Shown piece by piece: positions 2,852 to 53,420 of a DNA stretch of 59,556 nt. Source of the DNA: Gemmatimonadota bacterium (GTDB taxonomy: Bacteria > Latescibacterota > UBA2968 > GCA-2709665); assembly GCA_002709665.1 (NCBI GenBank), contig PAQK01000010.1:24245-83800 (forward strand), given 5' to 3'. The notes beneath the pieces were generated by a model. It saw nothing but the letters and a program-made list of their open reading frames with translations, made no database searches and had not been told where the DNA came from. Made by a program: the position numbers and the translations under genes. Position 1 is the first letter of the stretch. Every line of letters starts with the position of its first letter.

Positions 2852-4030
2852 ATGAAAATCCTAATCGCCAATGTGGGCAGTACATCATTCAAGTACAAGC
2901 TGCTTGAAATGCCCGAGGAAACCACATTGGCTGAAGGTCGAATCGAGCGAATTGGTGATGAAGAGGCCCCGGTCGAGCATCGAATAGGTGAGCAACTTTT
3001 TGTGAAGACCTGTCGGATGCCGGACTATCCTTCCGCAATCAAGGAGGTGATGACGAGCCTCTCAGATCTCATCACACAGCCGGCTGACCTTGATGCGGTG
3101 GGCTTCAAAACGGTACATCTTCGTGGTGAACCTGGCACCTATCTACTCAATGAGGATACGCTTCAGCGGATGGCCGACTACAATGATCTGGCCCCCGCCC
3201 ACAACCCTCCATATATCCAGGCGATTCGGATCTTTCACGAATTGTACCCGGATCTCCCACTGATCGGCCTCTTCGAGACGGCTTTCCACACAACCATTCC
3301 GGACTACGCTTATACCTACGGTTTGCCCTACGAGTGGCAGGAGCAATACGGTGTGCGCAAATACGGATTCCACGGGGCGTCCCACCGATATGTCTCACAA
3401 AGGGTACCCGAATTGATCGATACGCCTGTTGCAGGATTCAAACTGGTCTCCTGTCATCTAGGTGGAAGCGCGTCTCTGTGCGCCATTGTGGATGGATGCT
3501 CAATCGATACAACTATGGGGTTCTCCGCGCAAGACGGGCTCCTGAACAGTACCAGAAACGGTTCCATAGACCCATTCATCATACCCTTTATGATGGACAG
3601 GGAAAGGTTTGCTACATCTGACATCCGCGAAATCCTATCCAAGAAGAGTGGATTGCTGGGTATTTCAGGACTCAGCGGAGACATGCGAGATCTCCAGGAG
3701 GCTGCGCAAAAGGGACATAGACGAGCAAAACTGGCAGTGGATGCGTTCTGTTATGGCGTAAAGACGCAGATCGCTGCTATGGCCGCTGCGATGGGCGGGG
3801 TAGATGCCATCGCCTTCGCCGGCGGCATTGGCGAACGAGGTGCCGACGTCCGTATGCAAGTTTCCAAAGGCCTCGAGTTCCTGGGCGTTTGTATTGACGC
3901 AACGCTCAACCAACAGGGACCTCCGGAACGTGTGATATCGCTACCAGATCCCCCTGTAGATGTGGTTATTGTACAAACAAATGAGGAGATTATAGTCGCC
4001 CGAGAAACAGCCCGTTTCCTTCAGGCCTGA
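2852..4030 (+). CDS. ackA: Acetate kinase
   Basis: MKILIANVGSTSFKYKL.., FHGASHRYV, SCHLGGSASLCAI and FAGGIGE are canonical acetate/propionate kinase motifs. Length is 392 aa. Confidence 0.9.
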   Translation: MKILIANVGSTSFKYKLLEMPEETTLAEGRIERIGDEEAPVEHRIGEQLFVKTCRMPDYPSAIKEVMTSLSDLITQPADLDAVGFKTVHLRGEPGTYLLNEDTLQRMADYNDLAPAHNPPYIQAIRIFHELYPDLPLIGLFETAFHTTIPDYAYTYGLPYEWQEQYGVRKYGFHGASHRYVSQRVPELIDTPVAGFKLVSCHLGGSASLCAIVDGCSIDTTMGFSAQDGLLNSTRNGSIDPFIIPFMMDRERFATSDIREILSKKSGLLGISGLSGDMRDLQEAAQKGHRRAKLAVDAFCYGVKTQIAAMAAAMGGVDAIAFAGGIGERGADVRMQVSKGLEFLGVCIDATLNQQGPPERVISLPDPPVDVVIVQTNEEIIVARETARFLQA

Positions 4031-4043
4031 GGAGTTAACCTCA

Positions 4044-5492
4044 ATGTCTGTGCTCTCCATTCTGCTATTCACATTCCTCCGCTTCTTTACCCCCTCCACC
4101 CTTACTGCCTTCGACCGCGAACTCTGGACAACCTTCGCCAATATGAATGAAGTTACCGCGATTGCCGAGGGTGACACTCACATCTACATTGGAACCACCC
4201 GGGGCATCCGGCGATATGACCGGTATGCCAATCGCTGGATCTCCCCACTCACAACGCTCGACGGTCTTCCACACAACCGCATAAGAGATTTGGCCTATGA
4301 CCCTGCTACGGGTGATCTTTGGGTCGATACACATGCCGGCGAAGTGGTTTGGCTCACCCGCTTGGAATCCATTTCCCTCTTTGTTGAGAAGCCACCACCA
4401 CCTCATCCTCATCTCACCGTACCACCATTGTACTTGCCATTCGGATATCATCTGGATGCACCCAACTGGATCCGTGGAAATCGGAATTCCTATGCAATTA
4501 CTGATATCCATATAGATACGTGGCGGATCCTGTGGCTAGGCACATATGGCCTGGGCGTTGGCCGGGCGGATATGCGAACGGAGGAGTTGGAATTCCACAG
4601 ATTTGGACCCTTGGACGAAAACATAAAGGCAATGGCCCTGGATGGGGAGACCATCTGGTTCGGAGGTGGTCAATCTCAATCCTCCGCCTCCCGGGGCATT
4701 TCACGATACCATACAGGAACAGAGGCCTGGACCTATTTCGAGTCGGAAAACACATTCGAAATTCACAATATCAAGGTATCCACGATATTACCGGACAGTA
4801 CCGATGTGTGGTTTGGTACACCTGAGGGCCTTGTTCGGTTTAAAAGGAAGACCAACCGATGGCTTACTTATAGAATCTCCAGACGAAATTGGGGGCATGT
4901 TACCGCTCTTGCCAGAACACCCAACAGAATCTGGATTGGAACCCTCGACGGCCTTGCGGTTTATGACCCGGGAGTCGACTCAATCAGGACTGTGGGAGGC
5001 AGCGAACGGTTTACCATTTATGATCTTGCCGTTGGACCTCGAAATGTCTGGGCTGGAACCGAATTTGGAATGTTCAATTGCCCATTGGATGATGTGACCT
5101 GGACTCCGGTTCAAGATGACCTGGTAAGAATGCCCGTAAATGGTTTATTCGCCGATTCATCGGGCGTTTGGGCAACCCTCGAATCCCCATCCGCTTTGGT
5201 TCACCTGCCTGCATCGGGCGGCAATTGGCAGCGGTATCCTTTCTCGGAGGTCAGTGGTAATCGCCAGGTCGGAATGGACGCAGACTCCGCTGCTGTATGG
5301 CTGGCTACTGATATGGGCGCGTTCAGGTTCGACATCCGCAGGCAACAGTTCCGAAGGTATCTCCCCTCGGATGGCCTTGTGGACGAAAACGTGAATTCCG
5401 TTCTGCTACAAGATGGGTTTGTTTGGTTCGGAACCTCCATTGGGGCTTCAAGATACCGTTGGGAATTGGATTTCTTTGACTCAAATCATTGA
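4044..5492 (+). CDS. Beta-propeller protein with two-component-regulator-propeller (Reg_prop)-like repeats, N-terminal hydrophobic segment
   Basis: Repeated ..W(F/I/V)GT..GL..(Y/F).. blades occur (IYIGTTRGIRRYD, LWLGTYGLGV, VWFGTPEGLVRF, IWIGTLDGLAVYD, VWAGTEFGMF, VWLATDMGAFRF, VWFGTSIGASRY). GAGGAG lies 9 nt upstream of the ATG. The start is only 13 nt after ackA. Confidence 0.6.
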   Translation: MSVLSILLFTFLRFFTPSTLTAFDRELWTTFANMNEVTAIAEGDTHIYIGTTRGIRRYDRYANRWISPLTTLDGLPHNRIRDLAYDPATGDLWVDTHAGEVVWLTRLESISLFVEKPPPPHPHLTVPPLYLPFGYHLDAPNWIRGNRNSYAITDIHIDTWRILWLGTYGLGVGRADMRTEELEFHRFGPLDENIKAMALDGETIWFGGGQSQSSASRGISRYHTGTEAWTYFESENTFEIHNIKVSTILPDSTDVWFGTPEGLVRFKRKTNRWLTYRISRRNWGHVTALARTPNRIWIGTLDGLAVYDPGVDSIRTVGGSERFTIYDLAVGPRNVWAGTEFGMFNCPLDDVTWTPVQDDLVRMPVNGLFADSSGVWATLESPSALVHLPASGGNWQRYPFSEVSGNRQVGMDADSAAVWLATDMGAFRFDIRRQQFRRYLPSDGLVDENVNSVLLQDGFVWFGTSIGASRYRWELDFFDSNH

Positions 5493-5668
5493 TATAAATG
5501 AATTAAGGTGAATAATACGTTCAGTAGTGATTTAAAAAGTGCGTGACAGAGGCCGCCCTTTTTGTTATCTTTCGATTTGTTCGCCCCTTACGTGATGGCC
5601 TGAAGTCCAACTCCCGAATTGGTCATTATGATTTCCCCTTTGCTCCCCTACAAATCGATTTTTAAATG

Positions 5669-5718
5669 CGGCCAGCCTGAGCTATTCAGCTTCAGCGGGA
5701 TGGCCGTTTTGTGTTTTT
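5669..5718 (+). terminator. Terminator-like imperfect hairpin plus U-tract 26 nt upstream of the BMC-H start
   Basis: An outer stem CGGCCA/TGGCCG encloses an imperfect inner stem (CCTGAGCT..AGCTTCAG), followed by TTTTGTGTTTTT. It may end the upstream operon or act as an attenuator for BMC-H. Confidence 0.5.
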
Positions 5719-5745
5719 AGACAATAAGAGCGGGATCACTATCAA

Positions 5746-6210
5746 ATGAGCAAGAACGCGTTGGGTTTAATTGAAACACGAGGCTTCGTCGGGGTTGTGG
5801 AAGCTGCCGATGCTGCTGTCAAAGCCGCCTCAGTAGAGCTGTCCGCGGTTGAAAAAATCGACGGTGGGTTGATTTCAATCCAACTGCTCGGGGATGTTGG
5901 AGCTGTGCAGGCCGCGGTGCAGGCCGGTGCCGAGGCGGCACAACGTGCAGGGCAGCTTGTTTCTCAACACATAATTCCCAACCCACACGACGATCTCGTA
6001 GATGCTTTTGCATTGGATGGAAAAGATTCAAAAGACTTCGACCTGGAGTCCCTGTCGGTAACGCAGTTGCGCTCCCTCGCACGACAAACTTCCGGGCTTT
6101 CGATCCAGGGCCGTGAAATCTCAAGATCCAATCGCGACCAACTCATACAGGCTCTCAAATTGGCGAGAGATGGAGATCAAGCGGATTCCGGAGAAACTGA
6201 TGGAAACTGA
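5746..6210 (+). CDS. BMC-H hexamer shell protein (Pfam BMC domain, PduA/CcmK-like) with 65-aa C-terminal extension
   Basis: ALGLIETRGFVGVVEAADAAVKAASVEL..GGLISIQLLGDVGAVQAAVQAGAEAA is a canonical single BMC domain (~res 1-90). Residues 91-154 are an extra tail. Confidence 0.85.
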   Translation: MSKNALGLIETRGFVGVVEAADAAVKAASVELSAVEKIDGGLISIQLLGDVGAVQAAVQAGAEAAQRAGQLVSQHIIPNPHDDLVDAFALDGKDSKDFDLESLSVTQLRSLARQTSGLSIQGREISRSNRDQLIQALKLARDGDQADSGETDGN

Positions 6211-6544
6211 CACACTTTGGGAAAGAATCAAACAGGGTGTCCTCGAGAGCGCATCTACGGCAGCCGAGAAGGCGGAGTACCTGGGAAGGATTGGCCGGGC
6301 CAGGCTAGATATTGCTGGTACTCGGCATGCCATTCACGAGGCATTTGCAGAGTTGGGTGGTGTTGTCTACACCTATCTTCAGGATGGAAAAAAAACGGCT
6401 GTTGCTCAGAAGGATGACGTACAGGAACTGGTAGAAAAGATTGGTGCTTTGGAAGATCTGCTCAAGGAACGGGAGGTCTCTCTGGAGGGACTGAGAGACG
6501 GAAATGGTGAAGAGGCACCGGCTGAAGAAACCCAACCCGGGTAG
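6200..6544 (+). CDS. Hypothetical coiled-coil protein (114 aa)
   Basis: The ORF is open from 6113. I prefer ATG 6200 (METDTLWERIKQG..), which overlaps the BMC-H end by 11 nt. The protein is helical and charged with an acidic tail; no family was recognised. Confidence 0.45.
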   Translation: METDTLWERIKQGVLESASTAAEKAEYLGRIGRARLDIAGTRHAIHEAFAELGGVVYTYLQDGKKTAVAQKDDVQELVEKIGALEDLLKEREVSLEGLRDGNGEEAPAEETQPG

Positions 6545-6550
6545 AATACC

Positions 6551-7969
6551 ATGGGCAGAGCGGGTCCAGTCCGGTTGGCAAAAAGATTTCCAATGTCCAT
6601 GATATTCTTGGGATTGAGCCTGATTTCCATCAATCCAGTCGTGGCCTCGGAGAGAAAGAGCCCATTTCCTGAAGTTGCAACCAGTGTCCGATCAACAGTC
6701 GTTAGTATTTCATCAAGTACCGCTAGAGGCAGTAGAATCCCCTGGGCCAAATCCCGACGGAGTCCATCCGCTCATCGGTTTGGTTCCGGATTCATACTGG
6801 ATGCCGACGGTCACATCCTCACCAACAATCACGTTGTAGATGAGGCGTTCGGGATTCAGGTTGCACTTTCGGATGGAACCGAGTTTCCAGCGGAGATTAT
6901 CGGACAGGACCCTGATACCGATCTTGCGCTGATAAAGCTGAAACTCAACCGTCCGATCGCACAGAGTCGCATCGCTAATCTGGGCTCTTCCGACTCTGTT
7001 TCAGTTGGCGATTGGGTTATGGCTGTTGGTAGTCCATTTGGCTTTCACCACACTGTAAGTGTGGGTGTAATCAGCGCGAAGGGCAGGCATCTTGACCGGA
7101 TAGAGGGTGAGGACCTCCCGCCCTCCTACCAGGATTTTCTTCAAACGGACGCTTCCATAAATCCGGGCAACAGCGGTGGGCCGTTGGTAGATCTTGAGGG
7201 AAGCGTTGTAGGAATCAATACAGCCTACAACCCTGGCGGTGCTGGAATTGGGTTCGCGATTCCGATCGATTTGGCGAAGGATGTTGCCGAAGAACTATTG
7301 CACCACGGCGAAATAGTAAGAGGATATCTTGGCGTCCACCCTCAAGATTTGACCCCGGACCTTGCAGAAGCACTTGGTAGAGATGTACCGACAGGGGTAC
7401 TCGTTGCCGAGATAGAACCAGGAAGCCCCGCAGAGAAGGGTGAATTAAGGCGGGGAGATTTGATTCTGAGGCTCGGCGGGCATCCGGTGACCGAAGGCGC
7501 CGATTTTCTGAAACTGGTTGCTGATTTGGTGCCGGAGACATCCGTAGATATTGAAGTATTGCGGGATAATTCAGTTTTAAACCTGCTCGTGAAACCAGGC
7601 AGGCGTATCTCCAGTACCGGTCGTGAACCACCTCCAGTGGCAACCAGTGCCGACTGGCCCGGGTTGGAGGTTGGGAACCGATGGGATCTTGAGAGCCGCC
7701 GTCTCAAGGTGCCAAAGTCGGGACAAGGTGTTGTCGTTACCTACGTGGCTCCTGGTGGCCCTGCCGACAAAAAAGAAATAGAAAGGGGTGATGTCATCCT
7801 GGAAATAGGTGACACCGCCATTTGGAACGTTCGTGATTACCAGACATTGATCGAAAAGGTGCAAGACCACGCCAAACCTACCCTCTTCCTCGTCCTTAAA
7901 AGGAGTGAGGGACACACGTGGTACGTCGCCATTCGGCAAAACGGTAACTCCTCTTCAGTCACACACTGA
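6551..7969 (+). CDS. Periplasmic serine endoprotease, HtrA/DegP/DegQ family (two PDZ domains)
   Basis: The catalytic triad contexts are intact: TNNHVV, DTDLALIKL, GNSGGPLVD. Two PDZ-like segments follow (GYLGV.., GVVVTYVAPGGPA..), and the N-terminus is signal-like. Confidence 0.9.
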   Translation: MGRAGPVRLAKRFPMSMIFLGLSLISINPVVASERKSPFPEVATSVRSTVVSISSSTARGSRIPWAKSRRSPSAHRFGSGFILDADGHILTNNHVVDEAFGIQVALSDGTEFPAEIIGQDPDTDLALIKLKLNRPIAQSRIANLGSSDSVSVGDWVMAVGSPFGFHHTVSVGVISAKGRHLDRIEGEDLPPSYQDFLQTDASINPGNSGGPLVDLEGSVVGINTAYNPGGAGIGFAIPIDLAKDVAEELLHHGEIVRGYLGVHPQDLTPDLAEALGRDVPTGVLVAEIEPGSPAEKGELRRGDLILRLGGHPVTEGADFLKLVADLVPETSVDIEVLRDNSVLNLLVKPGRRISSTGREPPPVATSADWPGLEVGNRWDLESRRLKVPKSGQGVVVTYVAPGGPADKKEIERGDVILEIGDTAIWNVRDYQTLIEKVQDHAKPTLFLVLKRSEGHTWYVAIRQNGNSSSVTH

Positions 7970-34246: not shown

Positions 34247-35845
34247 CTATCTATTTGCCTTACCTGGAACTTCGGTACCGGCCGCGGCATACGCGTTTGT
34301 AGAACCTTCAATTTGCCGTGCCTGAACCTGGGAGATTACGTGTTTTACGGAAGCTTCTGTCTTGTTGAGTATTGAACCGGGGTATACCCCGATCCAGAAC
34401 ATCAGCAGGACAAGCGGCACCATAACAACCCACTCCCGAACGGAAAGGTCAGTCAAGCTGCGATTCTCCTCATGCGTAACTTCTCCCCACACAACCCGTT
34501 GAAACATCCACAACATATATACGGCCGCCAGAACCACACCTGTTGCGGCGACCACACCAAAAACTGTATTGGCCTTGAAAGCGCCCAGCAAAATCAAGAA
34601 TTCACCTACAAAACCGTTCAGTCCAGGAAGACCAATCGAAGACAAGGTGGTAATCATGAAAAACGTAGCGAAAACCGGAACAACCTTCGCCAGTCCACCA
34701 AAGTCCTCAATCAGACGGGTGTGCCTTCGCTCGTAAATCATTCCGACGATTAGGAACAACGCACCAGTCGAGATCCCATGGTTCACCATCTGAATCACGC
34801 CACCTTGCATCCCCTGTGCATTCAACGCAAAAATTCCCAACACTACAAAACCGAGATGGCTCACGCTGGAATAAGCCACAAGCTTCTTGATATCCGGCTG
34901 CACCATCGCCACCAATGCCCCATAGATAATGCCAATGACGGACAGAACCATAATGTGTGGTGTGAAATAAAGCGATGCCAAGGGGAACAATGGCAGGCAG
35001 AACCGAATCAGTCCATACGTGCCCATTTTCAGCAGCACACCGGCAAGAATGACACTACCAGCGGTTGGCGCCTCCACATGTGCATCAGGCAGCCACGTGT
35101 GGAATGGGAAAAGGGGAACTTTGATTGCGAAACTCAGGAAGAATGCCAGGAATAGCCAATACTGAGCATCCCTGGCTACAGCGAATCCATAGAGCTTCAT
35201 CAGGCTAAAGGTATAGTCGCCGGTTGCATCACCATGCAGGTAGTAAAGATAGATGATGGCGACTAGCATCAGAAGGCTTCCGGCCAGCGTGAACAACACG
35301 AATTTTATTGCAGCATAGATCCGCCGTTCGCCTCCCCAGACACCTATCAGAAGATACATTGGGATGAGCATTGCTTCCCAGAACACATAGAACAGAAAAA
35401 GATCCAGGGAACAGAACACTCCCAACATCCCGGTTTCCAGAAGAAGCATGGCGGCCATGTACTCCCGAACTCTGGAAGTAATGGCCTTCCAGGAGGCCAA
35501 GATCGCCAGGGCGGTCAGGAGAGTGGTAATCAGAACCAGAAACACACTGACCCCGTCTATACCAAGTGAATAGCTCGCTCCGAGGCTCTTGATCCAGTTT
35601 GCATGCTCCTGAAACTGCATCTCGTGCGTGTCGCTCCTGAACTGCGTGAAAAGGGGAATCGACAGTACGAAATTTAGCAGCGATACGCCCAGGGCGAACA
35701 CTCGGCTGAATTCATCCCGTCCCTTACCAGCTAGCAGTAATACAATTGCGCCAACAAGGGGAATGAATATTAGAGAGGTAAGCAATCCAGGCATCAATTC
35801 AGAAGACCTCAATATGGATGAACTGTCTACGGCAATTTGTCCCAA
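34247..35845 (-). CDS. nuoM: NADH-quinone oxidoreductase subunit M
   Basis: Antiporter-like subunit with FHTWLPDAHVEAPTAGSVILAGVLLKMG and LVAYSSVSHLGF. Confidence 0.9.
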   Translation of the reverse strand: MGQIAVDSSSILRSSELMPGLLTSLIFIPLVGAIVLLLAGKGRDEFSRVFALGVSLLNFVLSIPLFTQFRSDTHEMQFQEHANWIKSLGASYSLGIDGVSVFLVLITTLLTALAILASWKAITSRVREYMAAMLLLETGMLGVFCSLDLFLFYVFWEAMLIPMYLLIGVWGGERRIYAAIKFVLFTLAGSLLMLVAIIYLYYLHGDATGDYTFSLMKLYGFAVARDAQYWLFLAFFLSFAIKVPLFPFHTWLPDAHVEAPTAGSVILAGVLLKMGTYGLIRFCLPLFPLASLYFTPHIMVLSVIGIIYGALVAMVQPDIKKLVAYSSVSHLGFVVLGIFALNAQGMQGGVIQMVNHGISTGALFLIVGMIYERRHTRLIEDFGGLAKVVPVFATFFMITTLSSIGLPGLNGFVGEFLILLGAFKANTVFGVVAATGVVLAAVYMLWMFQRVVWGEVTHEENRSLTDLSVREWVVMVPLVLLMFWIGVYPGSILNKTEASVKHVISQVQARQIEGSTNAYAAAGTEVPGKANR

Positions 35846-39648: not shown

Positions 39649-41271
39649 TTACGCCTCCACCTTCTCGATGGTAGAGAGCAGGGCACCCAGACTGCCCACG
39701 GATGAGGACTCCAATTGTGCAAACGCTTCAACAGCATTTGCCAGGTCCGCCATCACATCCTCAACTTCATCGTATGGCGCACTCCCACCCATCATCTCAA
39801 TCACGTCCTTGAGGATTCGCCAATCTGCACGTGCATCACCCACGGGTTCCAGACCTTGATTGATTTTTTGAACCCTACCGTCGCAGTTGGTGAATGTACC
39901 ATTTTTCTCAATGAATGTAGCTCCCGGTAGAATCACATCCGCCTGCCGACTGAGATCATTTGCCAATATGTCCTGCACCACCAAGAACTCGAGTTTACCC
40001 AAACTGCTGCGCTCCGCCTCCGTAATCCTTTCCAGTGGATCCCCACCAAGGATGTAAAGCGCCTTGATGTTTCCCTCTTGGATCCCCCGCCAAATCTCGA
40101 CCGGATCGGTTATGGACACCCCCAAGCCGCTCAGGATCTCAGTGACACCCCGACTGTTGGGCGATTTGTCAGCGCGAATTGTAAACCCACCCTTGAAAGT
40201 AGTATCTCCTTCCTGACTGACCTTTGGTCGAATCCCGATTGACGCACCTTCAAGCGGATCCTTGAACAGTATGCCGAACAGAAAATTCTCCTCATTGGTC
40301 AGGTGAGAGGATGCAAAACCTGCGATCGAGGCAGGTCCGTGAGCTTCGCGTATCTTTTCAAAGCCATCCCTGACCTTTTCCAGCGCTGCCTCCCAGAGAA
40401 CCAGATCGGGATCGGCGCCCCTGCCGATCATCGGAAAAAGTAGACGATCATCACTGTGCACGTATCCCCAGCCGTGTCTGCCATCATCACACATCCAATA
40501 CTCATTCACGTCCATATTTTCTCTGGGGACAAGCCGGTAGATCCTTTCATTGTTGTAGTCTGCACGTATGTTACATCCAGCGCTGCAGCCTGTACATAGC
40601 GTGTCTACCTCCTTGAGAAACCAGACACGCTGCTTGAACAGAAAATCCTTATCCAACAGGGCACCAACCGGACAAATATCTACAGTGTTTCCAGAAAGTC
40701 GGTTGTCCAGACGCTCACCGGGGAATATATCGATCTCGTTGTGAACACCCCTGTTGAAGTAGCCAAGTTCACTTGTCCCTGAAACTTCGTCGCAAAATCG
40801 GATGCATCGTGTGCAGCGTATACACCGGTCGGAATAGAGGAGTGTGTGCTCGCCAATATCTTTCTTCGGTTGAATCGTCTTTTGATCCAGAAAACGACTC
40901 CTGTCCGGTCCGTAGGTATAGCTGTAGTTCTGTAACTCACATTCTCCGGACTGATCACAAACGGGACAGTCCAGGGGATGGTTGATAAGCAGGAACTCCA
41001 TCACCGCATTCTGGTTACGTTTCACCTGTTCACTCTGCGTACCCACTACCATTCCTTCCGCAGGCATGGCGGTACAAGATGGGGCCATCCCCCGCCGCCC
41101 GCCTGCTTCGATCTCAACAAGACACATCCTGCAGTTGGCCGGAGCGCTCAAACCAGGGTGATAGCAATAGTGGGGGATATAGACGTCGTTCTCGACGGCG
41201 GTCTGCAGCAGGTTCTTGCCTGGAACAATCTCGATCTCTTTGTCATCTATCGTAAATGTCGCCATCAGCAA
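39649..41271 (-). CDS. nuoG: NADH-quinone oxidoreductase subunit G (short, 540 aa)
   Basis: N-terminal 2Fe-2S and 4Fe-4S motifs are present: CYHPGLSAPANCRMCLVE, HPLDCPVCDQSGECELQ, CIRCTRCIRFC, and CPVGAL. Confidence 0.9.
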   Translation of the reverse strand: MLMATFTIDDKEIEIVPGKNLLQTAVENDVYIPHYCYHPGLSAPANCRMCLVEIEAGGRRGMAPSCTAMPAEGMVVGTQSEQVKRNQNAVMEFLLINHPLDCPVCDQSGECELQNYSYTYGPDRSRFLDQKTIQPKKDIGEHTLLYSDRCIRCTRCIRFCDEVSGTSELGYFNRGVHNEIDIFPGERLDNRLSGNTVDICPVGALLDKDFLFKQRVWFLKEVDTLCTGCSAGCNIRADYNNERIYRLVPRENMDVNEYWMCDDGRHGWGYVHSDDRLLFPMIGRGADPDLVLWEAALEKVRDGFEKIREAHGPASIAGFASSHLTNEENFLFGILFKDPLEGASIGIRPKVSQEGDTTFKGGFTIRADKSPNSRGVTEILSGLGVSITDPVEIWRGIQEGNIKALYILGGDPLERITEAERSSLGKLEFLVVQDILANDLSRQADVILPGATFIEKNGTFTNCDGRVQKINQGLEPVGDARADWRILKDVIEMMGGSAPYDEVEDVMADLANAVEAFAQLESSSVGSLGALLSTIEKVEA

Positions 41272-47156: not shown

Positions 47157-47735
47157 ATGGTGGATGGTTTCTTCGCGCGTCTTTTCCGGAAACCTGCTGA
47201 GCCTGCGCCGCCTCAGTTGGAAATGCTCAGAAACAACCTTGAGAATCTCCCTGAAATCGTTGTGCCTAAGGGTTACAAACTCCGGTCCTATCACCCAGGG
47301 GATGAGGATGCCTGGTGTCGGATCATGGAGGGTAACGTAGGTAGAGAGTGGACTCCGGGAAAATGCCGAGAAAAGCTCACCGAAGATCCACGGTTCTCAT
47401 CTGAGAGTCTCTTTTTCGCGACCCTTGAAGGAGAACCGGTTGCCAGCGCCTGCGCCTGGACCAAATTGGTAGAGGAACGTGTGACAGGTGAGGTCCACAT
47501 GGTCGCCGTCCTTGAGAATCACCGAGGAAAGCGGCTGGGTCATCTGGTCAACAGTGCCGTCCTTCACCGTCTGAAGGAACTTGGTTTTCAAAAAGCACAT
47601 CTACTCAGCGATGATTGGCGAATCCCTGCAATTAAAAGCTATCTCACCGCAGGTTTTCATCCCCTCAATACGCACGAAAGCCACCCACAGCGATGGGAAA
47701 AGATCTTCGATCAACTGGGTATCTCCGGAAATTGA
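47157..47735 (+). CDS. GNAT-family N-acetyltransferase
   Basis: VAVLENHRGKRLGHLV (the R/QxxGxG/A acetyl-CoA motif) occurs in a ~190-aa protein. Confidence 0.75.
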   Translation: MVDGFFARLFRKPAEPAPPQLEMLRNNLENLPEIVVPKGYKLRSYHPGDEDAWCRIMEGNVGREWTPGKCREKLTEDPRFSSESLFFATLEGEPVASACAWTKLVEERVTGEVHMVAVLENHRGKRLGHLVNSAVLHRLKELGFQKAHLLSDDWRIPAIKSYLTAGFHPLNTHESHPQRWEKIFDQLGISGN

Positions 47736-47739
47736 ACAC

Positions 47740-48447
47740 CTACGCAAGCAATTCTGTATAGCCAAACCCTATGGCCTTCTTGACTCGTTCCAGCGTGTGC
47801 TGACCTTGGACTCTTGCTTCTGAACACCCAAGATTCAGGACGTCTCCGACAAGACCGGGCACTTTCTCCAGCTGCTGGCGCCTGGACTCGAATTCTTCTC
47901 CCAGCACACAATTGCAATCGCCTATTCCGGTGTAAATCGACGTAGGCTTGTGAAAGACATCCCCAAACCTTTCATTAAATTGTCCCGCCAGGCCTTGAGC
48001 CAGCAGAATACGATCCTCTTGATCGACCCCAACAGGTACGAGGGTGGGCCCGAACATCAGTATATACGCTGCCTGGAACAGAGAGTAACCAAGGTGCCCA
48101 TAAGTAGTGTCATCCAAACTGTCCTTCCCCAACAGCCTTTTAACCTGAACAAGGTTACTCAAGATGGATGCGAGTTCAGCAAGTTGTGGAACCTGGGATT
48201 GTAGGAAGCAAATACCACGCTCCAAATTGAAACCTAGCGCCAAAGCATCCAGAACCATTTCGGTGACACTGTCTTCGATATTTCGCCTAACGTAACTGCC
48301 TGATTTGAGTGTATGGTAGTCTGCTATCATCAGTAAGCAAGTATGGTCATTCTGAAGTGAGATAAGCCTACCCAGCGGGTTCGCGTAATCTTGAATGAAT
48401 GACCCAGCCGCGGGTTTAAGCCCGGTATGTGCAATTTGCCTTTTCAT
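47740..48447 (-). CDS. Truncated, catalytically degenerate tryptophanyl-tRNA synthetase paralog (TrpRS-fold pseudo-enzyme, 235 aa)
   Basis: It aligns by eye with the adjacent TrpRS: IADYHTL / IADLHTL, FLQSQV / YLQSAV, GYSLFQAAYILM / GYPVLQAADILM, LVPVGVDQED / LVPVGKDNEA, TLERVKKAIGF / TLKEVKKAMGL. HIGH is replaced by SFIQDY and KMSKS is absent. About 100 residues of the C-terminal domain are missing. It has its own GGAGAT SD and ATG. Confidence 0.75.
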   Translation of the reverse strand: MKRQIAHTGLKPAAGSFIQDYANPLGRLISLQNDHTCLLMIADYHTLKSGSYVRRNIEDSVTEMVLDALALGFNLERGICFLQSQVPQLAELASILSNLVQVKRLLGKDSLDDTTYGHLGYSLFQAAYILMFGPTLVPVGVDQEDRILLAQGLAGQFNERFGDVFHKPTSIYTGIGDCNCVLGEEFESRRQQLEKVPGLVGDVLNLGCSEARVQGQHTLERVKKAIGFGYTELLA

Positions 48448-48483
48448 GATTTCATCTCCGAAGAAGTGTTGTGGAGAATTTTC

Positions 48484-48524
48484 AAAAGAAAAAAGCCGCT
48501 GATCACCTTCCGGCGATCAGCGGC
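48484..48524 (-). terminator. Strong intrinsic terminator between trpS and the TrpRS paralog (attenuator candidate)
   Basis: On the minus strand, a perfect 10-bp stem GCCGCTGATC / GATCAGCGGC with a 10-nt loop is followed by TTTTTTCTTTT. It ends 36 nt before the paralog ATG. Confidence 0.8.
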
Positions 48525-48610
48525 TCAGTAGCACGCCAACGACGACCCGGTGTTGGCCATACCTCACCCCTTGACCAAATCCACCAAGCCCTTGTCCTAA
48601 AGGCACACAT
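48503..48610 (-). CDS. Candidate regulatory leader peptide 2 (35 aa, 5 Trp: MCAFRTRAWWIWSRGEVWPTPGRRWRATEPLIAGR)
   Basis: AAAGGAA lies 6 nt upstream of ATG 48610. Trp codons are at positions 9, 10, 12, 18 and 25. The TGA lies in the loop of the 48484-48524 terminator. The ORF is below the track's size cutoff. Confidence 0.55.
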   Translation of the reverse strand: MCAFRTRAWWIWSRGEVWPTPGRRWRATEPLIAGR

Positions 48611-48657
48611 CCAAATTCCTTTATATTCAAACGTCATTGTAACCTCGGTTCTAACCC

Positions 48658-49719
48658 CTATTCTTGGTTTTCCCTCTTTCTGTCTCTGGCTCTACGAGAA
48701 ATGCGATTCCATATTCCCGTCAAACCCATCGCCTTCTTCACTTCCTTCAGCGTCTCGTCCGCTATTTCTACGGCACGCAAGGTTCCCTCGTAGAGCACCT
48801 CCTCAACATATCCCTTGTCCTCCTCGAACTGTCTTCGACGATCTCTGATCGGATCCAGAAACGTGTTAAGGGCTGCAGTCAACTTTGCCTTCACTTCCAC
48901 ATCGCCCACTTTCCCTTCCCGGTATCTGGTCTTGAGATCTTCCACCTCATCCCTGTTCGGGTTAAACGCGTCGTGATAGATGAAAACTGGATTTCCCTCG
49001 ACCTTTCCAGGGATGTCAGCCCTCGTCCGATTAGGATCAGTAAACATTCCCCGAACACGCTTCTCGATGGTCTTAGCGTCATCTGAAAGAAGGATGCAAT
49101 TGTCCAGGCTCTTGCTCATTTTTGCCTGACCATCTGTCCCTACCAATGTTGGTACATCACCAATCATAGATTCCGGGATCGGGAAGACCTCTCCGTAGTA
49201 ATTATTGAATCGCCTGGCAATTTCCCGAGTGACTTCTACGTGGGCCTCATTGTCTTTCCCTACTGGGACCAGGTGGGACCTCGGCATCAGGATGTCGGCT
49301 GCCTGAAGTACAGGATAACCGACCAGTCCGAAAGGGATCGCTTCGTCATCCATATTCGCTGCCTTCGCCATATCCTTTATACTGGGCAGCCTGGCAACCC
49401 TCGGCAACGTCACCAACATCTCAAAAAACAGATTCATCTCGTAGACGGCGTGGACTGCCGACTGAAGGTAGATCGTCGATTTGGCGGGATCGATTCCAAC
49501 TGCCAGATAGTCCAATACCAGTTCCCGCGTGTTCTCTCTCAATGCCTCGATGTGTACCTTCTCCGGTCGGGTGGTAAGCGTATGCAGGTCAGCGATTAGG
49601 AAATAACACTCATACTCATCCTGAAGGCGGAGCCGATTCTGAAGCGAACCGACATAGTGACCCAGATGCAGCCGACCAGTCGGTCGGTCGCCTGTCAATA
49701 TTCTCTTCTTCTCACTCAT
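48658..49719 (-). CDS. trpS: Tryptophan--tRNA ligase
   Basis: HIGH motif (TGRLHLGHY), KMSKS, GYPVLQAADIL and VPVGKD are all present. ATG 49719 (MSEKKRILTG..) has AAGGAG 7 nt upstream; the track start at 49740 is a TTG. Confidence 0.92.
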   Translation of the reverse strand: MSEKKRILTGDRPTGRLHLGHYVGSLQNRLRLQDEYECYFLIADLHTLTTRPEKVHIEALRENTRELVLDYLAVGIDPAKSTIYLQSAVHAVYEMNLFFEMLVTLPRVARLPSIKDMAKAANMDDEAIPFGLVGYPVLQAADILMPRSHLVPVGKDNEAHVEVTREIARRFNNYYGEVFPIPESMIGDVPTLVGTDGQAKMSKSLDNCILLSDDAKTIEKRVRGMFTDPNRTRADIPGKVEGNPVFIYHDAFNPNRDEVEDLKTRYREGKVGDVEVKAKLTAALNTFLDPIRDRRRQFEEDKGYVEEVLYEGTLRAVEIADETLKEVKKAMGLTGIWNRISRRARDRKRENQE

Positions 49720-49742
49720 TTGTATGCTCCTTCTCGACAATG

Positions 49743-49772
49743 AAAAAACCCCTGCGGTCTGGCCGGCAGGGG
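49743..49772 (-). terminator. Intrinsic terminator in the trpS leader (attenuator candidate)
   Basis: On the minus strand, CCCCTGC-N10-GCAGGGG is followed by TTTTTT, ending 23 nt upstream of the trpS ATG. Confidence 0.75.
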
Positions 49773-49802
49773 TGAATCAAAAAGTCACTTTGTTGTCTTG
49801 AA

Positions 49803-49874
49803 TCAGTGCACGGTAAGCCAACCGGTATGATGTCGATCATACCACCAACTGCTCCGAAACCAACCGTGTACCAT
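49803..49874 (-). CDS. Candidate regulatory leader peptide 1 (23 aa, 4 Trp: MVHGWFRSSWWYDRHHTGWLTVH)
   Basis: AAGGAG lies 8 nt upstream of ATG 49874. Trp codons are at positions 5, 10, 11 and 19. An 8-bp hairpin (49824-49843) starts within the tandem Trp codons. The ORF is below the track's size cutoff. Confidence 0.6.
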   Translation of the reverse strand: MVHGWFRSSWWYDRHHTGWLTVH

Positions 49875-49913
49875 CTCAGATTCTCCTTGGAAGGTATGCC
49901 AATGCTCCTTCGA

Positions 49914-49942
49914 ATAATAGCCGAAACCACCCAACGTGTCAA
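49914..49942 (-). promoter_or_regulatory. Sigma-70-like promoter for the trpS leader (TTGACA-17-TATTAT)
   Basis: On the minus strand, TTGACA (49942-49937), 17-nt spacer, TATTAT (49919-49914). Confidence 0.5.
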
Positions 49943-49992
49943 GTTAATTGTATCTTGTCAACGATCCATACACCCTTAGGCACCTACCGACT

Positions 49993-50979
49993 TTACGCGG
50001 TCAGTAGTTTCGCCATATCCTTGGCAAAATAGGTCAATATCATGTCCGCCCCTGCGCGCTTGATGCCCAAGAGTGTTTCGACCATAGCTCGATCTTTATC
50101 CGCCCAACCTTTATCAGCCGCCGCCAGCACCATCCCATATTCTCCCGAAACATTGTAGGCGGCAATGGGTACATCAAACGCTTCCTTCGCCTTTGCGATT
50201 ACGTCAAGGTAGGGTAAGGCCGGCTTCACCATCACCACGTCTGCACCTTCCTCTATGTCCAACGCAATCTCTCTCATCGCCTCGCGGACATTTGCAGGAT
50301 CCATCTGATATGTCTTTTTGTCTTTGGGTATCCCGGACTGTTTCACTGGTGCTGACTTCAATGCGCCTCGAAATGGTCCATAGAAGCAGGACGCGTACTT
50401 TGCAGAGTAGGCCATTATGGAAACCTGCTCAAACCCCTCGTCGTCGAGGGCGTTCCGGATTGCCCCAACGCGACCGTCCATCATATCCGACGGGGTCACC
50501 CAATCGACGCCTGCCCTTGCGTGGGACAACGCCATATTGCACAACATGGCCACGCTTTCGTCGTTGGCGATCTCCCCATCAATCACCAGTCCGTCGTGTC
50601 CGTGGGTGGTGTAAGGGTCCAGAGCCAGATCCGTCTGGACACACAGTTCCGGCAGTGCATCCTTGAGTGCTCGAATGGCACGTTGTACAAGGCCATCGTC
50701 ATCGCAGGCCATTGTGGCCTTTTCATTCCTCTCTTCCGAGTAGCCGAACATGTTCACCGCACCTATGCCCAAGTCCCACAGCTCTTTGCATTCGGTCACC
50801 AATTCGTCTACCGTGTGACGAAACTGCCCCGGCATAGAATCGATCGGCTCCCTCCTGCCTTCGCCATTTGTTACAAACATCGGGTAGATAAAATCGCCTA
50901 CTGCGAGAGAAGTCTCGCGTACAAGTGTCCTTACTGGTTCGGTTCTTCTGAGTCTTCTAGGTCTGTAGGTCAAGTCCAT
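49993..50979 (-). CDS. hemB: Porphobilinogen synthase (delta-aminolevulinate dehydratase)
   Basis: The N-terminal YRPRRLRRTEPVRTLVRETSL..DFIYPMFV is typical of HemB. The active-site region includes MVKPALPYLD (Schiff-base Lys). Length is 328 aa. Confidence 0.92.
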   Translation of the reverse strand: MDLTYRPRRLRRTEPVRTLVRETSLAVGDFIYPMFVTNGEGRREPIDSMPGQFRHTVDELVTECKELWDLGIGAVNMFGYSEERNEKATMACDDDGLVQRAIRALKDALPELCVQTDLALDPYTTHGHDGLVIDGEIANDESVAMLCNMALSHARAGVDWVTPSDMMDGRVGAIRNALDDEGFEQVSIMAYSAKYASCFYGPFRGALKSAPVKQSGIPKDKKTYQMDPANVREAMREIALDIEEGADVVMVKPALPYLDVIAKAKEAFDVPIAAYNVSGEYGMVLAAADKGWADKDRAMVETLLGIKRAGADMILTYFAKDMAKLLTA

Positions 50980-52313: not shown

Positions 52314-53420
52314 ATGATTATACAGACTGGCCTGGTCGGAACTCCAAAGCACGAACTGGATACACCGTCTCTCCTGGTGGATATGCCTACTCTGGATCGG
52401 AACATTAGCAAGATGTCCTCGACCATCATCGAGGAAGCCGGTGTAAATTGGAGACCTCATACAAAGGGGATGAAGACCCCGGTGCTCGCGCATATGCTGC
52501 TTGATGCGGGAGCCATTGGGATCACCTGCGCAAAGCTAGGTGAGGCCGAAGTGATGGCCTACGCAGGAATCAAGGATATCCTCATAGCCAACCAGGTCGT
52601 CGGCCCCAGGAAGATTGCTCGACTTGTGAATTTGTGCAGTCGTGCAGATGTAATCGTCTGTGTGGACGACATTCGAAATGTAAACATGATCGGTCAGACG
52701 GCAGCCAACAAAGGCGTCACCGGTCGCGTGCTCATTGAAGTCAACGTGGGTATGGATCGGGCAGGTGTGGAGCCGGGAGAACCTGCCCTGGAACTGGCTG
52801 CCCAGATTGCCGCGTGCAATGGCGTCGAGTTCTCCGGACTGATGACTTGGGAGTCGCATGCCCTTACAGTCGAACCGATTGAAGAGAAGAAACGTGTTAT
52901 CACGGAGGCGCTGGACAGGCTCACTGAAACAGCGGATCTGTGTCGCAGCAACGGTCATACAATCGACATCGTCAGTTGTGGTGGAACGGGAACATACTGG
53001 ATCAGTGCTTTCCACTCTGGAATAACGGAGATCGAAGCCGGCGGCGGGATTTTTGGAGATATCAGATACAGGACCGTCTTCGGTGCTGATCTGGAATATG
53101 CCCTCACTATACTCTCCACGGTGACTTCCCGACCAGACGCCACTCGCATAATCTGTGATGCAGGCAAGAAAGCAATGAGTAGTGACGCTGCGACACCAGA
53201 ACCCATCGGAATTCCGGGCGTGAAATCCGTGGCGCTCTCCGCAGAACACGGCAAGATAGTCCTCGAGAAGGAAGCCAACGATCCGGACGTGGGAGACCAG
53301 GTCGAATTCGTGGCAGGCTACTCCGATACCACTGTCGTCCTTCACGACGAGCTCTATGCGATCAGGGATGGCGTAGTCGAAGCCGTATGGCCGCTGCCGG
53401 GTAGGGGACGGGTCCAATAG
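52314..53420 (+). CDS. DSD1-family PLP enzyme (D-threonine aldolase / D-serine dehydratase-like, alanine-racemase N-terminal fold)
   Basis: LDTPSLLVDMPTLDRNI.., RPHTKGMK (PLP Lys context) and the C-terminal ..GDQVEFVAGYSDTTVVLHD are present. Confidence 0.75.
   Translation: MIIQTGLVGTPKHELDTPSLLVDMPTLDRNISKMSSTIIEEAGVNWRPHTKGMKTPVLAHMLLDAGAIGITCAKLGEAEVMAYAGIKDILIANQVVGPRKIARLVNLCSRADVIVCVDDIRNVNMIGQTAANKGVTGRVLIEVNVGMDRAGVEPGEPALELAAQIAACNGVEFSGLMTWESHALTVEPIEEKKRVITEALDRLTETADLCRSNGHTIDIVSCGGTGTYWISAFHSGITEIEAGGGIFGDIRYRTVFGADLEYALTILSTVTSRPDATRIICDAGKKAMSSDAATPEPIGIPGVKSVALSAEHGKIVLEKEANDPDVGDQVEFVAGYSDTTVVLHDELYAIRDGVVEAVWPLPGRGRVQ

Follow-up and report, generated by a model that had tools for sequence, protein, structure and literature searches.

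A truncated tryptophanyl-tRNA synthetase derivative, predicted to be catalytically dead, behind two putative serial Trp-codon attenuators in Latescibacterota

The window analysed in this study is a stretch of 59,556 nucleotides from a Gemmatimonadota bacterium (contig PAQK01000010.1; Latescibacterota in the GTDB lineage), in which an intact gene for tryptophanyl-tRNA synthetase (TrpRS), trpS, is followed on the same strand by an open reading frame (ORF) of 235 amino acids (aa) related to TrpRS. We consider it rather probable that this ORF encodes a functional, catalytically dead derivative of a second TrpRS lineage and that it would be induced by a shortage of Trp-tRNA, its expression and binding being predicted. 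That lineage is the iron-sulfur (Fe-S) type of TrpRS, similar to the enzyme of T. maritima and to TrpRS II of D. radiodurans, and is called TrpRS2 here, while the product of the adjacent trpS is called TrpRS1. This reading is carried by the anatomy of the locus, its conservation, the origin of the protein in TrpRS2, the recurrent in-frame loss of its domains and the purifying selection acting on it.

All features of the module lie on the minus strand, and the coordinates are those of the whole window. The original prediction had proposed a serial order of promoter, leader ORF 1, terminator 1, trpS, leader ORF 2, terminator 2 and paralog, and every one of these elements was found in that order:

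49942-49914, minus strand: sigma70-like promoter TTGACA-N17-TATTAT (11/12 match), predicted to serve the whole module
49874-49803, minus strand: leader ORF 1, MVHGWFRSSWWYDRHHTGWLTVH, 23 aa with 4 Trp; AAGGAG lies 8 nt upstream, and the tandem Trp pair is at 49847-49842
49843-49824, minus strand: leader 1 hairpin GGUAUGAU-CGAC-AUCAUACC in the minimum-free-energy fold; its 5' arm begins within the second tandem Trp codon
49772-49743, minus strand: intrinsic terminator 1, CCCCUGC-N10-GCAGGGG followed by U6 (-17.7 kcal/mol, z = -2.6)
49719-48658, minus strand: trpS (TrpRS1), 353 aa, with HLGH and KMSKS intact and no Cys motif
48637-48503, minus strand: leader ORF 2, 44 aa, 6 of them Trp, with WWIW (..RAWWIWSRGEVWPTPG..); it stops within the 3' arm of terminator 2
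48590-48541, minus strand: leader 2 hairpin, in which the Trp-codon stretch (CUUGGUGG..UUUGGUC) pairs with GGCCAACACCGGG; proposed anti-antiterminator
48526-48493 (to 48487 with the U6), minus strand: intrinsic terminator 2, a 15-bp stem with a GGAA loop and U6 (-29.9 kcal/mol, z = -7.8)
48447-47740, minus strand: truncated TrpRS2 derivative, 235 aa, Rossmann-fold/CP1 domain and C-terminal helices

The promoter is the sole sigma70-like match in 47400-50200; no second one was found in this interval, and none between trpS and the 235-aa ORF. It agreed with the earlier expectation that no promoter lies between the two genes, and no consensus promoter just upstream of the paralog separates it from trpS. 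A promoter equivalent, TTGACA-N17-TAT(C/A)(G/A)T, is kept upstream of leader 1 in other trpS-linked loci.

The 235-aa protein matched Pfam PF00579 (E = 6e-20) over profile positions 9-187 of 292 only, and it scored 102.6 bits on NCBIfam TIGR00233, below the cut-off of 176.75. The adjacent trpS matched the same models with E = 1e-78 and 320 bits. In a BLASTP comparison with this trpS, the 235-aa protein showed 31% identity over residues 8-173, and its last ~40 residues matched the C-terminal helix; about 100 residues, corresponding to the region of the anticodon-binding domain, are absent between residue 173 and the last roughly 40-45 residues. Motifs of the TrpRS2 forms were tabulated against B. 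stearothermophilus TrpRS (BsTrpRS). In the 235-aa protein, the HIGH position reads SFIQ, compared with HLGH in trpS and in full-length TrpRS2, KMSKS is deleted (BsTrpRS 190-198 align with a gap), G.DQ is retained but not the CP1 lysine loop, and the Fe-S cluster motif C-x(20-24)-C-x6-C-x2-C is deleted, leaving at most a CNC remnant (GDCNCV). The earlier description of a TrpRS-fold protein lacking HIGH and KMSKS was thus accurate.

The AlphaFold2 model of the paralog alone, a check that had been proposed with the original prediction and that was built here from a 66-sequence alignment, gave a confident TrpRS fold (pLDDT 86, pTM 0.86), and its sole weak segment, residues 171-180, is the deletion junction. 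The 50 PDB neighbours listed by Foldseek all had the TrpRS fold with query TM scores of 0.76-0.87; 49 were TrpRS entries, and the 50th (3u1v_D) was a designed esterase that matches TrpRS by sequence. As modelled, the protein would be a TrpRS Rossmann/CP1 domain capped by C-terminal helices, without ATP signatures and without an anticodon-binding domain. By every sequence criterion it is predicted to be non-catalytic: with the loss of HIGH, the CP1 lysine and KMSKS as well as the anticodon-binding domain, it should neither activate Trp nor recognise the tRNA anticodon.

Orthologues of 235-237 aa turned up in a homologue search at 98, 61, 55 and 54% identity. The nearest full-length relatives have 332 aa and 45-47% identity, and they carry HLGH, KMGKS, four Cys and the shared, invariant motif CFLQSQVPQLAEL. 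The best PDB relatives of full-length TrpRS2 were the T. maritima [4Fe-4S] TrpRS 2G36 (3e-82) and D. radiodurans TrpRS II (7e-78). The Cys spacing of full-length TrpRS2 is C-x20-C-x6-C-x2-C, compared with C-x22-C-x6-C-x2-C in the T. maritima enzyme (PMC2954223). These Fe-S enzymes (2G36; 1YI8 and 2A4M for D. radiodurans TrpRS II) represent the parent lineage and have the Cys motif in the anticodon-binding domain; unlike them, the window protein is without the whole segment that bears KMSKS and the four Cys. A neighbour-joining tree also placed the 235-aa protein inside TrpRS2. Because its identity to the 332-aa TrpRS2 is 45-47% and that to the adjacent trpS only 31%, the 235-aa ORF appears to be a truncated descendant of a separate, Fe-S-type auxiliary TrpRS and not a derivative of its neighbour. 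On the same grounds a recent pseudogene copy of the adjacent trpS was rejected, and the idea of a partner protein derived from this trpS was not borne out.

The paralog is not confined to this genome. A scan of one genome per species gave 33 TrpRS2 loci, nearly all in metagenome-assembled genomes (MAGs) of Latescibacterota, and with 6 further metagenome or long contigs, 39 loci were fetched. Class A comprises the window, 8 other genome loci and metagenome contigs L081-L083. Here TrpRS1 directly precedes a TrpRS2 that is degenerate in every case (234-308 aa, without HIGH or with an eroded HIGH, and with a KMSKS region that is missing or scrambled). This was the case in 9/9 trpS-linked loci, and class A is monophyletic with long branches. 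In class B, no trpS is found within 6 kb, and TrpRS2 is either full length (14 loci) or a short form of 245-248 aa (11 loci) with HIGH kept and a clean internal deletion. The arrangement described for the window, with the paralog directly downstream of trpS behind a Trp-rich leader and terminator, therefore holds for class A and not for class B. The upstream neighbours in class B (UxuA-like, sigma70/HEAT, DUF2087 and gamma-glutamyltranspeptidase genes) were varied and unrelated to Trp, and were dismissed as a functional clue.

Class C was found via TrpRS1 homologues and has, as in the window, a DCC1-like gene, hemB, leader 1, trpS1, a convergent GNAT acetyltransferase gene and usually GT2. No TrpRS2 and no leader 2 were found in its loci (L084-L087 and L091; gene at 4001-5068 or 3001-4035), where 20-130 nt separate trpS1 from the GNAT gene. 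The TrpRS1 homologues P0133, P0165 and P0136 also come from genomes without TrpRS2. Two more truncated clusters without HIGH came from a profile search of 1.84 billion representative proteins: P0242 (238 aa) and P0245 (222 aa), the latter in a class-B-like context with its own WWWW leader.

The conservation of leader 1 was followed in 12 loci, namely the 9 trpS-linked loci of the genome scan, metagenome contig L082 and two paralog-less relatives. It is present in all of them, with the peptide ..(S/G)WW(W)(H/Y)(D/E)..(R/H)TG(R/Q)L..C*, and was found in all class A and class C loci examined. The leader 1 hairpin directly follows WW(W), and it was recovered by RNAalifold on 11 loci, in which one CG pair changes to UA in a compensatory way. 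On its 3' side stands CCGG(C/U)(C/U)GG, complementary to the 5' arm of terminator 1; the leader 1 strand ACCGGCCGG is complementary to GCCGG of this terminator, which itself is kept with one compensatory pair (RNA alignment A6). Trp-rich mini-ORFs are common, as 22/696 six-frame mini-ORFs of 20-60 aa in the window have at least 4 Trp. The case for both leaders therefore rests on their intergenic position and their conservation, because Trp-richness by itself is not decisive. Further mini-ORFs with 4-5 Trp occur in the window, for example at 34861-34935 (minus strand), 39933-40049 (minus strand) and 52735-52842 (plus strand); the three checked by position fall within long ORFs or genes and were set aside as six-frame noise.

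Leader 2 was found upstream of TrpRS2 in 38/39 fetched loci, whatever the state of the gene, while the contig of the 39th ends too early to tell. Gene order and leaders are accordingly conserved, with leader 1 in 12 loci and leader 2 in nearly all. The consensus peptide of leader 2 is ..RWWW.SA.GDVCPPPD(I/V)W.., and the consensus RNA is CGCUGGUGGUGG-N18-GUCCACCACCGG-N25-35-terminator. The region 48487-48610 folds with -57.9 kcal/mol (z = -4.2), and RNAalifold on 23 diverse loci gave a helix UGGUGG:CCACCA, kept in 21-23/23, and the terminator. Over the same loci, 98.7% of the cells of terminator 2 are paired; 27 cells are doubly changed, and the covariation score exceeded that of each of 500 shuffles. 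Its apical part, CCGG-AA-GGUGG (CCGGAAGGUG), is invariant while the basal stem covaries, and it is complementary to CCACC-A-CCGG of leader region 2 (87% paired, compared with 27-57% in slid controls). An antiterminator pairing in leader 2 is therefore plausible, not proven. In most loci (e.g. L004, -190 to -22), the UGGUGGUGG Trp codons have as their pairing partner the strand CCACCACCG, which reads Pro-Pro-Pro and then Asp or Gly. The leader 2 ORF of most loci reads through the terminator and the U-tract (..RWRAFF..).

Because leader 2 stands before full-length and truncated TrpRS2 alike, it predates the truncation and appears to be inherited from a TrpRS2 ancestor that was still catalytic. 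Directly before leader 2, many class B loci have an extra Trp mini-ORF (..MRDWW(W)HAPVWIC*) that is followed by a terminator of its own. Paired serial attenuators thus seem to be a recurrent, ancestral feature of TrpRS2 control, not an innovation for a dead copy. The two-checkpoint gating in the original prediction was right about the serial architecture and wrong about a device specific to the paralog, since tandem attenuators are ancestral in TrpRS2. This third type of Trp mini-ORF also occurs with the peptides ..VTGWWWSG.. and ..VLGWWSVP.., and has its own GC-rich terminator (L020, about 5620-5800). It was seen at L021, L002, L009, L028, L015, L018 and L019 as well (-300 to -640 relative to TrpRS2), and together with leader 2 it makes two tandem attenuators with no gene between them.

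A different explanation of the leaders is that they are not sensed by ribosomes. The UGGUGG/CCACCA element would then be an RNA-only or factor-dependent switch responding to tRNA, a protein or Trp, with incidental Trp codons. The UGG and CCA repeats are mutually complementary, so RNA structure could also explain their conservation, and the leader 2 ORF enters or crosses its terminator, unlike the E. coli trp leader, which stops before it. The WW(W) reading frame is nevertheless kept in all loci, and both window leaders have a Shine-Dalgarno sequence and an ATG start codon. Furthermore, three kinds of leader stand upstream of TrpRS genes, the unrelated leaders 1 and 2 and the third type, and in all of them the tandem Trp codons lie where the 5' strand of the first hairpin is. 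Rfam gave no hit at the gathering threshold in the whole window, including no T-box and no Trp_leader, and in 48400-50050 a search relaxed to E = 10 gave generic hairpin matches but no T-box or known riboswitch. On these searches, a T-box or other known RNA family was ruled out for the leaders, and we regard a switch that works without the ribosome as improbable.

The E. coli trp leader has a short ORF whose tandem Trp codons overlap the first strand of alternative hairpins, and an intrinsic terminator follows. The leaders described here share the tandem Trp codons at a first hairpin and the intrinsic terminator, and alternative hairpins are predicted for them. We infer the polarity of the attenuators and the exact antiterminator pairing. 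The single promoter upstream of trpS would drive the 235-aa ORF, and RNA polymerase would have to pass two serial Trp attenuators to reach it. When charged tRNA-Trp is low, the ribosome would stall at the tandem UGG codons and cover the 5' strand of the first hairpin in each leader; the freed CCGG-rich partner strand (ACCGGCCGG in leader 1, CCACCACCGG in leader 2) could then pair with part of the terminator and allow read-through. With plentiful Trp-tRNA, the ribosome would advance onto the partner strand, and the terminator would form. Unlike in the E. coli trp leader, the Trp codons of leader 2 (UGGUGGUGG) themselves form a helix with the CCACCACC (Pro-Pro-Pro) strand, the leader 2 ORF has no stop before the terminator, two devices stand in series, and no similarity to Rfam Trp_leader is seen. 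In most relatives, the ribosome would pause at the Pro-Pro-Pro codons of CCACCACCG in leader 2, and the slowed ribosome would stand in for the stop codon of the E. coli leader. The product would be made only under marked tRNA-Trp charging stress, along with extra TrpRS1.

The KMSKS loop and the anticodon-binding domain appear to have been removed by at least five or six independent deletions. The class B DNA alignment shows three in-frame deletion junctions, from at least three independent events: a 252-nt deletion with the junction ..QSKI|MTPFR.. in nine genomes, VYG|ALADV in L002 and DAQ|MTAFR in L009, the last two being sister taxa to the full-length L021. Further distinct junctions were found in L089/P0245, P0242, L008, the window clade and the L014 group. 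Each deletion takes out the block from the domain hinge (around residue 182-195) to the last helices, and with it KMSKS, the Fe-S motif and the anticodon-binding helices; every one is in frame and keeps the Rossmann domain and the C-terminal helix. No frameshift or stop was found in the 33 loci recovered at the DNA level, so the decay by frameshift in relatives that the original prediction had considered was not seen.

The ratio of nonsynonymous to synonymous divergence (dN/dS) was calculated by the Nei-Gojobori method with bootstrap confidence intervals (CI). It was 0.105 among 248-aa short forms (28 pairs, mean dS 0.20) and 0.101 among full-length forms (15 pairs), and 0.13 (CI 0.08-0.19) for L081 against L001, which are HIGH-less, 237-aa members of the window clade. 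In the L014 group, it was 0.28-0.44, with upper CI limits of 0.40-0.62. Of private substitutions, short alleles had 20 nonsynonymous and 29 synonymous ones, and full alleles 11 and 12 (p = 0.62). The 235-237-aa architecture persists down to 54-61% amino-acid identity with dS saturated. Taken together, the data suggest that the truncated TrpRS2 proteins are maintained by purifying selection.

These results bear on the possibility that the ORF is an evolutionary relic, that is, the remnant of a dispensable auxiliary TrpRS heading for deletion, left as an open frame behind an old attenuator and without a function of its own. Such a relic would hardly show a dN/dS of 0.10-0.13 after truncation, equal to that of full-length enzymes, nor an architecture retained until dS is saturated. 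All independent deletions are in frame and at domain boundaries, with 0/33 DNA-level loci disrupted by a stop or frameshift, and six in-frame events by chance would have a probability of about (1/3)^6 = 0.001 if the frame were random; leader 2 and the ribosome-binding site are also maintained. What speaks for a relic is the complete loss of TrpRS2 in close relatives, the higher dN/dS of the L014 group, a window pair whose dN/dS is not significantly below 1, and a progressive erosion of motifs. Substitutions in the HIGH region were found in 3/11 short forms and 0/14 full-length forms, the trpS-linked clade has lost HIGH, and a change at BsTrpRS D132 is seen only in the window lineage; the trend in truncated forms thus appears to be toward loss of catalytic features. 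On balance, we hold a functionless relic to be unlikely.

Several of these observations also weigh against our preferred reading of a functional protein induced by charging stress. The close relatives of class C have lost TrpRS2 and leader 2 entirely, which means that the gene is dispensable and non-essential. Short-form genomes without an adjacent trpS would need another TrpRS, as follows from necessity. The window copy is the most eroded member of the family: in the window and its 98%-identical relative only, the Asp of AADIL (BsTrpRS D132) is replaced by Tyr (QAAYIL), and the equivalent of BsTrpRS F5 has changed from L to H. In BsTrpRS, D132 recognises indole, according to a preprint (bioRxiv 10.64898/2026.03.23.713518), so its replacement argues against simple Trp or indolmycin binding by this copy. 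The Asp is kept in most other truncated forms, QAAYIL being found in the window and in L083. The dN/dS between the window and the 98%-identical relative was 0.31 with a CI of 0.08-1.27, from a single close pair with little divergence, and selection may be relaxed in the terminal lineage of the window. With regard to regulation, the proposed antiterminator helices show no covariation and rest on complementarity and conservation, and leader 2 of the window has PTP for PPP and one mismatch in region 2, which makes the antiterminator pairing weaker there.

At one and the same locus, a genus-level clade with a dS of about 0.2 has both a 248-aa allele, with an identical 252-nt deletion junction, and a 332-aa allele (short in L003-L007 and L010-L013, full in L020, L022, L024-L026 and L030; gene at about 6001-7000 of the locus). 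The gene tree and the trees of both flanks all mix short with full alleles, and sister pairs such as L022 (full) and L005 (short) are consistent among them; polymorphisms are common to the two kinds of allele up to 5 nt from the junction. On this evidence, a single origin with clonal inheritance of the deletion was rejected. The interleaving reflects either a presence/absence polymorphism that is old, spans species and has seen heavy recombination, or a recurrent, identical and precise deletion.

For a functional protein, the elements that are kept give an indication of its role. Invariant are the CP1 segment CFLQSQVPQLAEL, Q..A..L, G..Q, FN..(F/Y)G and the C-terminal helix LV.D.L.LG...AR...(Q)TL..VK, and selection retains parts of the amino-acid pocket (Q..A.IL, G.DQ). 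It suggests a folded, probably dimeric binding protein. We propose an ATP-independent, dimeric binding or regulatory protein, either a homodimer or a subunit paired with full-length TrpRS, by analogy with HisZ; dimerisation and any ligand or partner are predicted on this basis. TrpRS is an obligate dimer, and the tRNA spans both subunits (PMC2954223), so that a heterodimer with full-length TrpRS would alter or block charging. No conserved co-transcribed partner was found except trpS1, in the trpS-linked clade. A wider proposal, which we put forward tentatively and would not ourselves bet on, is that Rossmann-only TrpRS2 forms a new family of regulators that combines repeated loss of the KMSKS/anticodon module, induction by charging stress, dimerisation and a long-lived allele polymorphism across species.

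The protein might instead be a decoy or buffer that sequesters Trp or an inhibitor of the indolmycin or chuangxinmycin type, the attenuators acting as a drug sensor, as with the resistant auxiliary TrpRS of Streptomyces. Trp-codon attenuation is predicted for auxiliary trpS in Streptomyces (PMC1262725), antibiotic-resistant duplicates of TrpRS are known (PMC9437257), and the pocket elements Q..AD.L and G.DQ are kept in most truncated forms. High-affinity binding of indolmycin, however, needs ATP and Mg2+ in a related TrpRS, as stated in the same preprint (bioRxiv 10.64898/2026.03.23.713518), and the ATP site is destroyed here. The Asp that recognises indole is lost in the window copy, the positions equivalent to Y125 and D146 vary within the trpS-linked clade, stoichiometric sequestration would be an inefficient route to resistance, and no biosynthetic cluster lies nearby. 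A decoy is therefore quite improbable.

New chemistry has also to be considered, in which the remodelled pocket would catalyse an ATP-independent reaction, for example with Trp-tRNA as acyl donor as in cyclodipeptide synthases. The length of 222-248 aa, the Rossmann fold and the lack of ATP motifs resemble those enzymes (PMC9437257), and the protein is under purifying selection. On the other hand, it matched only PF00579 in Pfam, and none of the 50 Foldseek matches listed is a cyclodipeptide synthase, an identity that was rejected for want of support from either search. Expression tied to scarce charged tRNA-Trp would be the opposite of what a consumer of Trp-tRNA needs; relative to full-length TrpRS2, the truncated forms have no new invariant nucleophile, and no tailoring genes are nearby. 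We consider new chemistry very improbable. A component of a defence system was rejected as well, as PADLOC gave no hit for the 235-aa paralog, the short form or the GNAT protein.

The closest functional analogy to the proposed role of the TrpRS2 derivative is HisZ, a paralog of HisRS that serves as a subunit of ATP-phosphoribosyltransferase. It is likewise derived from an aminoacyl-tRNA synthetase (aaRS), without adenylation, under selection and used for regulation or ligand sensing (PMC9437257). Truncated TrpRS2 shares with it the combination of lost adenylation motifs and purifying selection. HisZ differs in that it is a class II protein, keeps its overall domain set and has HisG as a partner, while no biosynthetic gene adjoins the window locus. 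YadB/Glu-Q-RS and the amino acid:carrier-protein ligases have, as here, lost the anticodon-binding domain and kept the catalytic core (PMC9437257), but they retain the ATP-binding motifs and activate their amino acid, whereas the window protein has lost the motifs.

A similar arrangement is found in Streptomyces, where S. avermitilis trpS2 and the indolmycin-resistant TrpRS1 of S. coelicolor are also second TrpRS genes beside a housekeeping one, with a Trp-codon leader and a terminator through which tRNA-Trp charging stress induces them (PMC1262725; PMC9437257); classical attenuators have been predicted upstream of the auxiliary trpS in this genus (PMC1262725). The Streptomyces auxiliary enzymes are full-length and active, whereas the window gene is without HIGH, KMSKS and the anticodon-binding domain. 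Unlike them, it stands behind two serial attenuators, and the leader sequences are unrelated, with no Rfam match. A 2022 review of aaRS duplication lists only full-length TrpRS duplicates and no TrpRS-like paralog (PMC9437257), and no model for truncated TrpRS2 forms was found in Pfam, NCBIfam or PADLOC. The original prediction, which could not place a non-catalytic TrpRS-fold partner in any described family, is in line with these four sources.

The module is flanked by two genes:

50979-49993, minus strand: hemB (Pfam ALAD, 3e-141), preceding the promoter
47157-47735, plus strand: convergent GNAT acetyltransferase gene, ending 4 nt from the stop codon of the 235-aa ORF

Because the GNAT gene is convergent and ends so close to it, the 235-aa ORF is the last gene of its transcription unit, and the two transcripts must overlap. 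The GNAT protein weakly resembles mycothiol synthase MshD. Its identity across the loci of classes A and B (with a convergent equivalent in 24 related loci) is 58-77%, which makes it more conserved than TrpRS2. The gene also adjoins trpS1 in genomes without TrpRS2, so a functional tie was rejected, and it was taken as a syntenic neighbour. The adjacent trpS is 77-100% identical to its best 120 hits, other phyla included. TrpRS1 shows 77-85% identity to proteins labelled Poribacteria, Fimbriimonadia, Chloroflexi and Latescibacteria, which is unusually high across phyla and suggests either that this TrpRS type has spread laterally or that MAGs are mislabelled.

Attenuators that work through the ribosome, auxiliary genes for TrpRS, and aaRS paralogs that are truncated or inactive (HisZ, YadB and the carrier-protein ligases) are already known kinds. 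To these we add what we rate as a variant, a family of TrpRS-derived pseudo-enzymes with recurrent, selected domain loss under serial Trp attenuation. The finding has a practical side, as the short forms (e.g. L003:6001-6744) reach 190 bits on TIGR00233 despite having no KMSKS and no anticodon-binding domain. This is above the cut-off of 176.75, so that annotation pipelines would name them tryptophan--tRNA ligase, and the 248-aa forms are prone to such misannotation.

Time and again, new biology has come from proteins derived from synthetases, such as HisZ, YadB, PoxA and the cyclodipeptide synthases. Within one phylum, TrpRS2 presents a series from an active Fe-S enzyme to a domain-deleted form with HIGH intact, then to a HIGH-less form and finally to complete loss, and the same Trp-codon attenuator is retained at every stage that still bears the gene. 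Three questions become testable with this series: what use a cell has for a class I core reduced to the Rossmann domain, by what route a family of essential enzymes gives rise to a pseudo-enzyme, and how serial attenuators set a higher threshold of induction. If the protein does form a heterodimer with full-length TrpRS, it would be a built-in modulator of Trp-tRNA synthesis, possibly a dominant-negative brake or a half-site tuner.

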